A stretch of 64,000 bases of DNA from an uncultured Verrucomicrobiae bacterium (GTDB taxonomy: Bacteria > Chlamydiota > Chlamydiia > Chlamydiales > Rhabdochlamydiaceae). The stretch lies in contig CAWFUG010000009.1 of assembly GCA_963818965.1 (NCBI GenBank), positions 442,075 to 506,074 on the forward strand, written 5' to 3'. Below are positions 6,184-55,843 of the stretch, piece by piece (the stretch's first letter is position 1; every line of letters starts with the position of its first letter). A program made the position numbers and the translations under genes. The notes under the pieces were generated by a model, which was not told the origin of the DNA, made no database searches, and was given only the letters and a program-made list of their open reading frames with translations.

Positions 6184-6420
6184 TTAATACGAAGCCTTGT
6201 AAAAAACGAACTCAGTGCTTTTGTTTTCCTTTAATGAAGTGTATAGAATTTCTTCATCTTTTCCTTTTGGGATTTTTATTACTCCGAAATTAGGATCAAA
6301 AAAGAAATTTTGTCCTTTGTTTTTGAAGTAGACGCAAGTATGGCCTTCATCTTTTTTTGGATCGCCCTGCTTGAAAATATAGAATCCATTTGGTTGGATT
6401 TTGCTTTGTTGCTGAAATTC
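6184..6420 (-). pseudogene. C-terminal remnant of a YopT/C58-like cysteine protease domain
   Basis: Open frame with no start codon, hand-translated as ...PNGFYIFKQGDPKKDEGHTCVYFKNKGQNFFFDPNFGVIKIP...KASY*; GH and FFDPNFG motifs present. Confidence 0.55.
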
Positions 6421-6495
6421 ACCACAGAGCCTTGGGAAGGGGGGCGTCTCGGTCCTTAATTTTATACTCTACCCCTTCCATCATCTAGATGTAAC

Positions 6496-6524
6496 TTGGG
6501 TCAAAATCGGATCCAATCTATAAT
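6496..6524 (+). promoter_or_regulatory. Sigma70/sigma66-type promoter for the IS110 left-end RNA and transposase
   Basis: Perfect TATAAT at 6519-6524; TTGGGT 17 bp upstream at 6496-6501. Confidence 0.55.
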
Positions 6525-6528
6525 TCCT

Positions 6529-6670
6529 CCTCGTAATGTAGAGGCCGAGCTATCATTGGCGCTTGTAAGCCCGGCACAGAGAATGGCACGCAAAAGGTCA
6601 CGTAAGCATCGCTGGTGAGATCGTAAGATCATCCCGTTTAGGAGAATGTTGGCTTAACACCTTTTGCACA
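6529..6670 (+). ncRNA. Putative bridge/seek RNA of the IS110 element
   Basis: 5' hairpin CCTC/GAGG; two parallel loops CCCG-g-CACAGAG-AATG (6570-6585) and CCCG-t-TTAGGAG-AATG (6633-6648); stem GCAAAAGGT/ACCTTTTGC (6590-6598/6659-6667). Confidence 0.7.
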
Positions 6671-6694
6671 TTGCACTTAACCCAAGGAATTTTC

Positions 6695-8052
6695 ATGAAC
6701 ACCGAAATCGTGAATCAATCATCATCCATTAAAATTATCAATCCGAACGCTGCAGGAATAGACATAGGGGCTTCCTCCCATTTCGTTGCAGTGCCCGAAA
6801 ACAGAAGTAAAGAGTTTGTTAAAGAATTTGGGTGCTTTACCCCAGATATTGAAAACATGATTACATGGTTAAGGGAATGCAAAATCAAAACAATAGTTAT
6901 GGAATCGACTGGATCCTATTGGATACCGGTCTTTGAAATGCTGGATCAAGCCGGATTTGAGGTAAAATTGGTAGATGCCCACCATGTAAAGAATGTAAGA
7001 GGACGCAAGTCAGATGTAATAGACTGTCAGTGGCTTCAACAATTGCACACCCACGGCCTACTCTCGGCAGCTTTCCGTCCAGAAAATGAGATAGTAGAGC
7101 TAAGAAGTTTCCTCAGACAAAGGTCCATGCTCATTGAAACAGCCTCTATGCATATCCAACACATGCAAAAGGCACTCGTTCAAATGAACCTACACCTGAA
7201 CAATGTGATAAGTGACATCACTGGAGCAACAGGTATAGCTATAATAAGAGCGATTGTGTCAGGGGAAAGAAACCTCGATAATTTGGCAAAACTAAGAGAC
7301 CCTCGGTGTAAACAACCTGAATCTGTAATCAGGAAATCTCTTCAAGGCAACTACCGACCAGAACACCTATTTGCCTTAAAACAAGCCCTTGAAGCCTACG
7401 ACTTTTTCCAAAAAAAAATCGCCGAATGCGACAACGAGATAAAAAAAAACTCGAAGTGCTCTCCCCAATAAAAGAGACACCCTCACTGACAAAAAAGCCA
7501 AAAAAGCTAAAAAAATACGAATACGCTTTTAATGTAGCCGACCACCTAAAACAGCTCATAGGAACGGACCTAACAACGGTACCCGGGATAGACGTAAGCA
7601 CTGCTCTGAAGTTAATCTCGGAAATAGGAACAAATATAAGAAAATGGCCAACAGAAAAACACTTCTGTGCCTGGCTAGGATTATGTCCTGGCACCAGAAT
7701 ATCCGGAGGAAGGCGAATTAGTAGCCACACCTCGCATTGTACCAATAAGGCAGCGATTGCATTGAGAATGGCAGCAAGCTCATTATACAAAAGCAAAACA
7801 GCACTTGGAGCTCACTTAAGACGCATGAAAGCACGTATGGGTCCTGTTGAAGCAGTGACGGCAACAGCCCACAAAATGGCAAGGGCCCTTTATCAGATGA
7901 TACTGCGAAAAGAAGACTTTAGAGAAGCTGGCTCAGACTTTTACGATAAACTACACCAAGACAAAACACTGAAATTTTTGAAGAAGAGAGCCGCCTCCAT
8001 GGGATATGTCCTAACTGAAATGGAAAAAATGAAAAGCGCTGTGCACCAATAA
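6695..8052 (+). CDS. IS110 family transposase/recombinase, split by a -1 frameshift at the A9 run 7441-7449
   Basis: GIDIG, MESTG and KSDVID (DEDD RuvC-like domain) in ORF1; C-terminal domain with WLGLCPGTRISGG in ORF2; RBS AAGGA before ATG 6695. Confidence 0.88.
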
Positions 8053-8075
8053 CTTAGCTTGAAGTTACTTAGGAG

Positions 8076-8212
8076 AGGGGAAACCACAGAGAGGAAATTC
8101 ATATTAAAAAGTTTCCTCTCTGTGGTTTTTCCTCTCTGTGGTGAAATTGCATCTATTCAGAATGGAATAATGGGGAGCTAGATTAGCTCCTCATGGATGA
8201 TGCAACAACGCC
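8076..8212. repeat. Right part of the family A MITE interrupted by IS110
   Basis: CCACAGAGAGG/CCTCTCTGTGG arms; TGCATCTATTCAGAATGGAAT shared with 33337-33360; ends in ATGCAACAACGCC. Confidence 0.8.
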
Positions 8213-8349
8213 GAGACCGTCTCTAATCGCTTGACTTCTTTACCTCGCTTCGCATAAAAGTGGGTATGAACCTATCCTTATAAAAAATTTCAGTCGATTT
8301 TCGGGGATGGTTTTGTAGCACTTTTGTTTTTGCGGGGGCTTTAAAGTTT

Positions 8350-9786
8350 ATGTCTATTCAGGAACTCGTCGCGCGCAAGTATGTACCTGTCAGCGTCTTT
8401 CAACTCTTTTCAATCGGAATCGGTCCTTCTAGTTCGCACACGGTAGGCCCCATGCGGGCAGCGCGGACTTTTGCAGAAGACCTCCTTTCCAAGGGGTTGA
8501 TGCCCATCGTCAAGTCTCTTAATATCGAATTATTCGGGTCGCTCGCTATGACGGGAAAGGGACATGGGACAGATATCGCCGTACTGCTCGGAATGGAAGG
8601 AGAGCGCCCAGAAGCCGTTGATCCCAATTGTGTCCAAGGGCGTGTCGCTGCAATTTCAAGAGCAAAAGTGCTCAATATCTTAGGGACCCATCCCATTGCT
8701 TTCGACGTCGATACGCATCTCATTTTTCATAGGGGTAAGCGGTTTACCTATCATTCCAATGGACTGCGCTTTAAAGCGTACGACGCGCGGGGAGATGTGG
8801 TGCATTCTGATATCTATTATTCTGTGGGAGGAGGGTTTGTCGTCTCTCAAGATGAAGCGTTAGGGGGGATCAGTGCAGGGCATAACGTCTTCAGAGATTC
8901 TGCTCCCTATCCTTTTCAGACTTGTGCGGAGCTCTTAGAGCATTGCAGAGAAACGGGTCTATCGATTGCCGAGCTCGTCTTAGAGAATGAGAAGGTGTGG
9001 CGGAAAGAGGGAGAGGTCCGCTCAGGGATTTTGAAAATTTGGCAGATCATGCAAGAGTGTGTGCAGAGGGGCTTGAGTCAAGAGGGGATTTTGCCGGGAG
9101 GGCTCAATGTGAGGCGCAGGGCCAAACAGATGTATGAGACTTTGACGTGGGACGGGCCTTTGCTAAAAGACCCTTCTGAAATTTTCGATTGGGTGAGCCT
9201 TTTTGCGCTAGCGGTCAATGAAGAAAATGCGGCAGGGGGGCGTGTGGTAACGGCTCCTACAAATGGGGCTGCGGGAATCATCCCCGCTGTTTTGCACTAT
9301 TATCAAAAATTCACTCCTCAGCCTACGGAAGAGGGGATTGTGACATTTTTTCTAACGGCGACTGCGGTTGGGATTCTCTACAAAGAGGGAGCTTCCCTCT
9401 CTGCGGCGGAGATGGGGTGTCAAGGGGAGGTGGGCGTTGCGACATCGATGGCAGCAGCAGGCCTTGCAGCAGCGCTTGGAGCCACCAATGAGCAGATCGA
9501 AAATGCTGCAGAAATCGGGATGGAGCATAATTTGGGCTTGACGTGTGATCCGGTTGGGGGCCTGGTGCAAATTCCCTGTATCGAGCGGAATACGATGGGC
9601 GCGATCAAGGCGATCAATGCGGCGCGCTTAGCCAGAATTCATGGGGATGGCCACTCTCACTGTGTCTCTTTAGATCAGGTCATCGGGGCGATGCGAGAGA
9701 CGGGAGAGGATATGCAGGCAAAGTACAAAGAGACCTCAGAAGGGGGGCTTGCCCTTCAGGTGCCCGTCAATCTACCAGAGTGTTAA
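8350..9786 (+). CDS. sdaA: L-serine ammonia-lyase (Fe-S dependent, single chain)
   Basis: [51 protein letters not shown]. Confidence 0.95.
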
Positions 9787-15812: not shown

Positions 15813-17010
15813 CTTTGTACCGGACAAAATTTTTATGACATTTCCTAACACACTAACCTACAAGTGTTTAGAATCTTAAGGATTTTTCGAAATTCATCGA
15901 TTTTCTTCTCTATGGAAAGAATCACAGACCTTAACCAATCCAATCCCAGCCGAAATAGGCTTTTAAGACAACCTCCCATGAGTCTTTCTGGGGATAGCCT
16001 CTTCAGCATCTTTTATGACCCCAAGCCTGTAAGACCAGCAGAAGGCTATAGCCAGAACAAAAAGCAGCTTTTCTATTTTCTCAGGTGCCGTCATATGGGT
16101 ATCTTCCATTCTAAAACCCCGAGTTTTTAAGCAGCCAAATAAAGTCTCTATTTCCCACCTTCTTCGGTACAGACCAATGGCATCCTCGAATTGAACATTA
16201 GCGACTACGATCATCGGCTCTTTCGCACCTTTCGCCTGATGTATTGAAACATAAAGCAGTTGCCCCCAAATGAGAACAGGGCGATTGATAATCGATTTGG
16301 ATCTACCCCTATTTTTCCAAAGTTCTAGAATAGGAACTTGATAGTAGTTTCGAAGCCCTCCTGCCATAGTGTTTTTCTTAATACGAATGACGAAGGGGAT
16401 TTTTGCTCTTTTCAAAAACCTAAACCAGTCCTCTCCTATGAACTCACGGTCTGCCAAAAACGCATATATGCGCCTATGCCCGATCTGTTGTAGAATCTTC
16501 TTCAGAATGGATATTCGATCCGAAGTAGATGAGGAGCCAGAAGAATTAGACACACTCCAGAAAATAGGAATACCAATTCCTCTATAAGCGACCGAGAGAA
16601 GAAGAATGTTAATATCTCGCTTTCCCCATTTCCAATTGGTGCGATCAAGAATTAGGATCAGTTGTCCTTTAAGACAAAAAAGAGAGAGTATTAGAGGGAT
16701 AATAACAGTGATATCGAAAGAAAATCCTGAGAAAAATCGCCGGACTCTTCTATAGGAAGAGTCCTGCTTTGCGTTCGATTGAAAAAAAGAAGAAATTTGG
16801 GTGAGGTTTACTGTTCTTGCGCAAATTAGTGCTTGTAAAATTTGGGCAAGACAGGCAATCCTTGCCTTATTCCAATGCAAATTCTGAACCAAAAGTCTTT
16901 GTAACTCGTTGACGTGATGCATAGCTACTCCTAAGTTGGCTAAACTCAGGTAGATATAATTCACGCTCAACGAGTTCTTTTCACCTCATTAAATTTTGTC
17001 CTGTACAAAG
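15813..17010 (-). mobile_element. IS4 family insertion sequence, 1198 bp
   Basis: 20-bp TIRs CTTTGTAC(C/A)GGACAAAATTT (19/20 match); 9-bp target duplication GAATTTACA at 15804-15812 and 17011-17019. Confidence 0.93.
15845..16922 (-). pseudogene. IS4 family DDE transposase with a frameshift near the C-terminus
   Basis: LDRTNWKWG, ADREFIG, YRRRWEIETLFGCLKTRGF; stop at 15963 precedes KSLFRLGLDWL, which lies in the +1 frame. Confidence 0.85.
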
Positions 17011-33290: not shown

Positions 33291-33495
33291 GGCGTTGTTG
33301 CGTAATTCCTGACCGGGCGCAGTATAGCTCCCCACCATTCCATTCTGAATATATGCAATCTCACCACAGAGAGGAAATTCTTTAATATGAATTTTCCCTC
33401 TGTGGTTTTCCATCTCTGTGGTTATACCCCGCGCGCTCAAATGCACCATTCTTAAGCGCGCGGGGTATAAATTCAGCTATTTATGCAACAACACC
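33291..33495. mobile_element. Complete family A MITE (205 bp) with nested family B insertions
   Basis: TIRs GGCGTTGTTGCGTAA / TTATGCAACAACACC; 8-bp direct repeat CTTTTGAC at 33283-33290 and 33496-33503. Confidence 0.85.
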
Positions 33496-55774: not shown

Positions 55775-55843
55775 TTCCTCTCTCTGTGGTGATACTTTTT
55801 TTTACCACAGAGAGAAGAATTATCCTGAAAATCTCTCTGTGGT
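55775..55843. repeat. Family A palindromic repeat
   Basis: CTCTCTGTGGT...ACCACAGAGAG...CTCTCTGTGGT right after the lepB stop codon. Confidence 0.8.

Follow-up and report, generated by a model that had tools for sequence, protein, structure and literature searches.

We analyzed a stretch of 64,000 nucleotides (hereafter the window) from an uncultured Verrucomicrobiae bacterium, placed by GTDB in the Rhabdochlamydiaceae (GCA_963818965.1, contig CAWFUG010000009.1, positions 442,075-506,074), whose genome assembly comprises 2.24 Mb in 12 contigs and is 88% complete. At positions 6430-8075 of the window, on the forward strand, lies an insertion sequence (IS) of the IS110 family, 1646 bp long and present in two identical copies in the genome. 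It interrupts the internal hairpin of a second mobile element, a miniature transposable element with inverted repeats (MITE) whose hairpin arms are repeated hundreds of times. We describe here the IS and its insertion site, the MITE, the predicted bridge RNA that links the two, and a recombinase gene divided between two reading frames.

An IS110-family element within a repeated palindrome

The recombinase is encoded by two overlapping open reading frames (ORFs) on the forward strand. ORF1 (6686-7471; 261 amino acids from an ATG at 6686) carries the DEDD/RuvC-like domain, with PF01548 matching residues 23-167 (Pfam, E 5e-21), and ORF2 (7426-8052, in the -1 frame) carries the Transposase_20/Tnp domain (PF02371, E 9.5e-13), including the conserved block ..LCPGTRISGG... 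Both ORFs are assigned by NCBIfam to 'IS110 family RNA-guided transposase', in agreement with the initial annotation, in which the element had been recognized as an IS110 member. ORF1 aligns with the N-terminal 280 columns of unbroken relatives and ORF2 with their C-terminal half, the two jointly making up the full length. The GIDIG and MESTG blocks of ORF1 align with relatives and with IS621, as does the LCPGTRISGG block of ORF2, which is the conserved serine block of the Tnp domain. A profile of the clade matches the IS621 transposase (8wt6, E 8.9e-14) and the ISCro4 transposase (1.1e-09) in PDB; a phmmer search of PDB sequences with either ORF singly gave no match at E 0.001. No further PF01548 gene is found in the assembly, and a promoter scan returned no sigma-70-like site. 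From these data, 6430-8075 is an IS110-family element.

Terminal inverted repeats (TIRs) are absent from the IS: its ends, CCTTGGG.. and ..CTTAGGAG, are not inverted. A GAG triplet occurs both at 6427-6429 and at 8073-8075, so that the ends are ambiguous by three bases (alternative extent, 6427-8072), and no target duplication beyond this shared GAG appears when the flanks are rejoined. The left flank, ..TTCACCACAGAG / ..GCTGAAATTCACCACAGAG, runs up to 6429; the insert extends from CCTTGGGAAGG.. to ..GAAGTTACTTAGGAG, with the right end TTACTTAGGAG at 8065-8075 (forward strand); and the right flank starts at 8076 as AGGGGAAACCACAGAGAGGAAATTC.. / AGGGGAAACCACAGAGAGGAAATTCATATT.., continuing through to ..CTCTGTGGTGAA / ..CCTCTCTGTGGTGAA at 8145. 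Removal of 6430-8075 had been said to restore a complete palindrome, and this is what we find: the arms of the rejoined sequence differ at two positions, their spacing is that of uninterrupted paralogs such as C8:26982-27055, and the rejoined flanks correspond to the consensus hairpin, with no base lost or added.

The assembly contains exactly two copies of the IS. The second, C2:48825-50470, is 100% identical over 1646 bp and is flanked on the left by ..TTCACCACAGAG / ..ATGCAATTTCACCACAGAG, as in the window, and on the right by the paralogous ATGGAAAACCACAGAGAGG.. / ATGGAAAACCACAGAGAGGAAATTC... When the flanks of all copies are listed in the genome and its relatives, a check already suggested in the initial annotation, both genomic copies lie at the same arm position of the repeat: the same nucleotide of the same outer arm (2/2), in diverged copies. 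Since the flanks are paralogous and not identical while the IS itself is identical, we have here two separate insertions and not one duplicated segment. A second copy could also be produced without the recombinase, if two MITE copies, one of them carrying the IS, underwent homologous recombination or gene conversion; repeat sequence on both sides of the IS would lend itself to such an exchange, and the recombinase gene is frameshifted. We hold this origin to be very improbable. Conversion tracts are expected to bring flank identity along, yet identity to the left of the two copies is limited to 12 bases, while on the right side bases 2 and 5 after the junction differ, as do bases further on; moreover, in relatives from three other genomes the junction rule is again the same, the flanks are different, and some of the sites lie outside repeats.

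Among 40 relatives, a search at the DNA level detected the IS in this genome only, plus one weak match (66%) in genome G036. In G001, a genome of the same genus, sdaA is present at 66% DNA identity with another neighbor, and there is no repeat at the locus. No more than 0.15 of the sampled words occur in any of nine public sequencing runs. Contigs from soil and peat metagenomes (runs X1-X4, from four studies; window positions 6200-8400) contain IS pieces of 151-261 bases. Those pieces that lie wholly on the IS show no differing letters; all are too short to include flanks.

The target repeat and its IS5-family partner

On the left of the IS, the MITE copy (6401-6429) retains a degenerate, internally shortened terminal repeat, GCTTTGTTGC..TGAAATTCA, as judged against the consensus left end GGCGTTGTTGCATAAATAGCTGAATTTCA, and the left target CCACAGAG (6422-6429), which forms the first eight bases of the outer hairpin arm. 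On the right (8076-8212), the remainder of the hairpin (8076-8145) is followed by a 71-base long arm, which ends in an intact terminal repeat, ATGCAACAACGCC (8200-8212). No target duplication is recognizable around this copy.

The repeat is abundant. The 14-mer CCACAGAGAGGAAA, with at most one mismatch, occurs 8 times in the window versus 0.02 expected, and the 11-mer CCACAGAGAGG has 281 exact copies in the genome versus 2 for a reversed control; 122 loci contain three or more arms. Intact copies of 74 bases form perfect hairpins of 36 bp, with a folding energy of -42 kcal/mol (DNA parameters) versus -5 for shuffles. This 74-bp hairpin is built from two direct and two inverted 16-base units. 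It extends on its flanks into one short arm and one 71-base long arm, the latter with about 50 paralogs, and both arms end in the same 13 bases, inverted: GGCGTTGTTGCAT ... ATGCAACAACGCC. We identified 23 element-sized GGCGTTGTTGCAT/ATGCAACAACGCC pairs, ranging from 145 to 260 bp with modal sizes of 158 and 174 bp; single terminal-repeat ends number 66 and 68 genome-wide. Target duplications of 9 bp (at least 8/9 identical) surround 11 of the 23 elements, versus 1 of 506 cross pairs.

An autonomous partner is found at C9:266874-268009. The first 22 bases of this 1136-bp element are those of the MITE end, an inverted repeat is present at its other end, the flanking 9-mers are identical at 8 of 9 positions, and a 330-amino-acid ORF matches NF033579 (IS5 family, E 1.9e-89). 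The transposase acting on the MITE probably comes from this element. Given its TIRs, its 9-bp duplications and the full-length IS5-family element that shares these ends, the repeat is a true MITE derived from an IS5-family element, and the earlier description of the target as a multicopy, non-autonomous element stands. The terminal repeat of this MITE may resemble that of IS903. In its TIRs common to a full-length IS5-family element, its 9-bp duplications, its size of 145-260 bp and its many copies, it is like other IS5-family MITEs. It differs from them in carrying the internal perfect hairpin, which is missing in the parent IS and is also seen with other flanks. The hairpin was observed in an inside-out arrangement as well (14 loci), and it is therefore a module common to more than one repeat family. 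The further copies that the initial annotation had listed in the window are real but do not all share one arrangement: at 1683-1744 the arms are inside-out, 33364-33421 lacks one outer arm, and 55782-55842 is partial.

The repeat had been thought to supply intergenic landing sites, and its distribution bears this out: 14 of the 122 loci lie within an ORF of at least 150 amino acids, whereas such ORFs cover 85% of the genome. It is also nearly restricted to this species, with 281 copies of CCACAGAGAGG here versus 2 in the same-genus G001. The genome holds 621 CCACAGAG sites, of which 64 continue with ATGG and two are occupied by the IS; from this low occupancy, the IS is either a recent arrival or kept at low activity. 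No gene for a RAYT (the Y1 transposase associated with repetitive extragenic palindromic, or REP, sequences) was detected: PF01797 has no match in the 88% complete assembly, in a search whose control matched 6 of 14 known genomes. An in-frame palindromic element near C9:100,500 was considered as a further member of the MITE family and rejected, as it has neither the heptamer nor the terminal repeat and belongs to another family.

Further multicopy modules adjoin the hairpin family, at 8263-8316 and 33422-33436 of the window and in the right flank of the C2 copy. One is about 40 bases long with some 20 paralogs, and another is a family of palindromes, TATACCCCGCGCGC..; nested insertions of these modules are present in the loops of some hairpins. 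The intergenic regions are mosaics of nested repeats. A distinct transposase gene of the DDE_Tnp_1 type lies on the minus strand at 16038-16667, with an open frame of up to 379 amino acids, in a 1201-bp element devoid of the MITE terminal repeats. Three copies of this element are 99.8-99.9% identical, the other two genes being located at C1:260950-261579 and C2:149713-150342.

Bridge RNA, guides and guide history

A protein search over 401 genomes of the phylum revealed relatives of the element in 22 of them. Scanning one genome per species yielded 49 loci, mostly from Acidobacteriota, plus two chlamydial metagenome-assembled genomes, and a metagenome scan with the bridge-RNA pattern yielded 6 loci, with the CACAGAG guide described below; the exact 23-base right-end pattern had no match in metagenome contigs. 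We aligned the regions upstream of the recombinase gene in 17 elements with mapped junctions and derived a consensus structure with RNAalifold. The consensus has two nested loops and 29 base pairs: 94.9% of cells are paired and 18 of the 29 pairs show compensatory changes, while none of 500 shuffles is as good and slid partners pair in at most 46% of cells. The target loop region lies at 6543-6588 and the donor loop region at 6590-6667, both on the forward strand; in the latter, 6/6 pairs of the closing helix are compensatory. Both loops have the same layout, composed of a closing stem, a short 5' segment, a stem-loop UGG.GC...GC.CCG and an 8-base segment ending in AG. As far as aligned sequences can tell, this shows that the IS encodes, in its left end, a bridge RNA with two loops. 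A different fold, in which CAYUGGYG...CAUUGGUG makes a single long stem and the helix GCAAAAGG/CCUUUUGC a pseudoknot, was rejected since RNAalifold returns parallel stem-loops of two nested loops.

In the target loop, the last seven bases of the 8-base segment are the seven bases left of the insertion. Here this guide, CACAGAG (6575-6581), is identical to the flank CCACAGAG (heptamer ..C|CACAGAG). At the five variable columns of the target guide, 15-16 of the 16 elements whose left junction is readable have the letters of their own left flank, with three to four different letters per column. The guide of the donor loop equals the last seven bases of the element in 17/17 cases: here it is UUAGGAG (6638-6644), identical to the right end of the IS itself. 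The base in front of the heptamer is a C in 13 of the 16 targets and in all 17 donors. The boundaries map to the GAG core in all copies, as the reading in the initial annotation required: 2/2 here, 3/3 in genome G260, 5/5 in genome G216 (with a variant heptamer) and 5/5 readable left junctions from metagenomes.

The short 5' segment of the target loop appears to be a second guide. It is complementary to the element's own right flank, with a sum of 45 versus a cross mean of about 30 over 15 elements (permutation p ~0.00015, a figure that, like that of the shuffles above, overstates independence since the compared elements are related); the support for this right-target guide is statistical only. 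The segment reads AGCUAU(C) here and forms five contiguous pairs with G|ATGG, one of them a wobble; pairing is weaker with G|AGGG and weakest with the inner arm, G|AGGA. In addition, the bases before the C preceding the heptamer are T-rich, like those of the outer arm (..ATTTCAC) and unlike those of the inner arm (..GGAAAC). Together, the fit of the 5' guide and this T-rich context may explain why both copies, in two events, took the outer arm over the inner one.

We thus think it very probable that a bridge-RNA-guided IS110 element inserted into an IS5-derived MITE, within whose internal hairpin it took the outermost of the arms that bear the heptamer. The IS would move by bridge-RNA-guided recombination, with pairing and recombination as in IS621, for which PMC11208160 and PMC11208158 give the rule that a guide reading like the top strand pairs with the bottom strand. 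By this rule, the target-loop guide CACAGAG would pair with the bottom strand at the flank. The 5' guide is complementary to the first bases past the insertion point, fitting ATGG arms best. The donor-loop guide reads like the right end of the element itself, the AG (or GAG) common to flank and end is the crossover core, and a circular intermediate would exist. The MITE, for its part, has spread CCACAGAG to 621 places, mostly between genes, thereby offering the IS hundreds of harmless landing sites.

Relatives of the element inform us on the age of this specificity. The recombinase of G260 is 74% identical at the protein level, and its three copies all follow A[C/T]CACAGAG and all end in ..GTTACTTAGGAG. 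The same CACAGAG guide is present at loci L081 and L076, at the six metagenome loci and in L048 and L049 from Acidobacteriota, and 5/5 readable left junctions of the metagenome relatives end in CCACAGAG. G216 (63% identical) has the guide CGCAGAG, and 5/5 of its copies follow CAACGCAGAG / ..TTTTCAACGCAGAG, in what is the outer arm of another palindromic element; the motif occurs 55 times there versus 0 for the control, and the joined flanks are colinear with three IS-free paralogs. Among the metagenome loci, L103 occupies a full palindrome at its outermost heptamer, L104 lies within an array of heptamers that read CACAGAG, and beside L102 there is an array of ATCAGAG heptamers.

These data bear on the claim that the guide had been tuned to the repeat arm. 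The identity of the guide in the left end to the CCACAGAG arm is confirmed; 'tuned', however, is too strong a word for the heptamer, because CACAGAG is also the guide in the MITE-free G260 and in L048 and L049. We therefore lean toward a history in which the IS, its CACAGAG specificity being old and inherited, entered a genome where the MITE had already multiplied the heptamer, a scenario that involves the same mechanism as proposed above and differs on history only. In its favor, G260 has the same guide and 0 copies of the MITE 11-mer, the guide recurs in the other loci just listed, and the repeat is nearly confined to the species. Judging from the guide's presence in relatives from MITE-free genomes, CACAGAG specificity looks older than the MITE expansion and was probably inherited, not tuned here. 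The short 5' guide tells a different story: it differs among close relatives (AGCUAU here, AGGUCG in G260, ACGUGA in L081), fits the ATGG outer arm in the present case, and might be locally adapted. Apart from 'tuned', the interpretation given in the initial annotation is supported.

Several observations weigh against guided insertion into the MITE hairpin as we picture it. The relatedness of the compared elements, noted above, weakens the permutation and shuffle figures, and the fit of the 5' guide is poor in G260, L069, L062, L065 and L072. A right-donor guide was not found, and scanning complementarity by column gave no clean diagonal for the right target or the right donor. An Rfam scan of 6300-8300 (E up to 10) detected no bridge-RNA family, with sub-threshold microRNA-like matches on the hairpin, and the fold of the left end as a single sequence is no better than shuffles (z -0.30). 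There are just two copies of the IS despite 621 CCACAGAG sites, and the preference for the outer arm rests on these 2/2 insertions. No circle junction, empty allele or transcript was seen; the contig pieces from public runs, which are 151-261 bases long, contain no joints. Finally, the three copies in G260 lie outside any multicopy palindrome (AYCACAGAGR occurs 16 times there versus 4 for the control), which argues that a palindrome is not required.

The last point also bears on a variant in which the hairpin shape of the target, and not only its sequence, directs insertion, the palindrome being a required structural signal. For ISPpu10, bioRxiv 10.64898/2026.03.19.712850 reports a dual match in which the target stem-loop acts as a second check, and palindromes or heptamer arrays host the insertions of our genome (2/2) and of G216 (5/5) as well as L047, L048, L049, L080 and L103. 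We nevertheless find such a requirement unlikely, as the three G260 copies and L100 occupy sites with no evident palindrome.

Three side observations came out of this survey. The targets of L047-L049 and L080 (Acidobacteriota), L103 and L104 are inverted arrays of 8-9-base units with C[A/G]CAGAG; palindromes made of such arrays thus recur across phyla, on the same theme as the hairpin described here. In the G141 relatives L009, L029 and L038 (57% identical), a donor-loop-like ..CATTGGTGAGATCG..GATCATCCCGTTTTAGAAGAGTG is located downstream of the recombinase gene, near the right end; the crossover point has apparently moved relative to the RNA gene, as in IS1111-type elements. In metagenome contig L099 (1621-1660), a right end ..TTACTTAGGAG is followed directly by sequence about 90% similar to the element's own left end, which represents either two elements lying head to tail or an assembled junction of the right end with the left end.

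Recombinase frame and relation to known systems

The reading frame of the recombinase must shift by -1 between the RuvC-like and Tnp domains, within a short interval around a run of nine A residues (A9) at 7441-7449 on the forward strand, a candidate site of programmed slippage. The same A9 and the same frame relation are found in G260 (L005/L027/L034), L081 and L076, whose DNA is about 68-70% identical to that of the present element. In these three, the -1 frame is closed by stops just upstream of A9, and in all four elements the zero frame stops 5 to 8 codons downstream of it; more distant relatives have a single open frame. L081 and L076 carry further defects and are counted only as conservation by descent. 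All copies in our genome (2/2) and in G260 (3/3; 99% complete) bear A9 and are 99-100% identical within each genome. Since A9 copies are the only ones present and are nearly identical, the frameshifted elements seem to have undergone recent movement without the help of an unbroken copy.

The conservation of A9 in four diverged chlamydial elements, observed in sequence comparisons, suggests programmed slippage. A-runs are used for slippage or frameshifting by other IS families. A full-text search of the literature turned up no account of IS110-family elements that use slippage or programmed frameshifting, and those listed in PMC3196728 have one ORF. As a tentative proposal, about which we remain somewhat doubtful, the chlamydial bridge-RNA clade may make full-length recombinase only through programmed slippage at A9, either transcriptional or by -1 ribosomal frameshifting.

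Insertion of IS110 elements into repeated palindromes is already established. According to PMC3184786, IS621 and IS1594 insert in repeated palindromes, the target of IS621 being a REP sequence, which backs the precedent invoked in the initial annotation. ISPpu9 of Pseudomonas putida has repeated palindromic intergenic targets (PMC12288879), and conserved intergenic stem-loop sites are described for ISPpu10 in the bioRxiv preprint cited above. What is new here is the chlamydial host group and a bona fide MITE as target; the comparison set shows covariation of guide and target.

With IS621 (pairing rules from PMC11208160 and PMC11208158), the present IS shares a DEDD and Tnp recombinase, a left end that encodes a non-coding RNA of two pseudo-symmetric loops, in each loop one guide reading as the flank or as the element's own end with the core included, the absence of inverted repeats and of target duplication, and a multicopy palindromic target. 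Unlike in IS621, the core reads AG on the strand that encodes the recombinase and CT on the opposite one, and the long, 7-base guide lies 3' of each loop's stem-loop with the short guide 5', an arrangement that is mirrored on the recombinase-gene strand: the order of long and short guides is that of IS621 only when target and donor are read on the opposite strand. The present IS further differs in that its target lies in a MITE bearing TIRs and target site duplications, with no RAYT gene found, and in that its recombinase is split at A9.

The resemblance to ISPpu9 and ISPpu10 lies in several identical copies that each occupy one position of a repeated palindromic intergenic sequence; their targets, however, are REP-type and proteobacterial, whereas here a chlamydial MITE of IS5 derivation provides its hairpin as the target. 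In the wider IS110 group, IS4321 and IS5075 target the repeat of another mobile element, as stated in a title from the reference list of PMC11208160. By that title, these elements also use a mobile element as landing site and provide a precedent for the 'nested parasitism' named in the initial annotation; their target is the end of a large autonomous transposon, in contrast to a hairpin inside a non-autonomous element that has about 120 loci.

With the present case, RNA-guided, repeat-targeting IS110 elements extend to environmental chlamydiae, and we have a natural example of one mobile element living almost only within another. The 17 elements with mapped junctions, drawn from two phyla and metagenomes, also provide a bridge-RNA anatomy worked out for a clade in which the order of the guides and the core read differently than in IS621, together with natural guide-target pairs of use for the engineering of bridge recombinases. 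Should the slippage proposal be true, the gene would by default yield a truncated RuvC-like protein, with the active enzyme as a rare product; the IS would then be a self-limiting hyperparasite on heptamer-array palindromes, and A9 slippage would constitute a new layer of control for the IS110 family.

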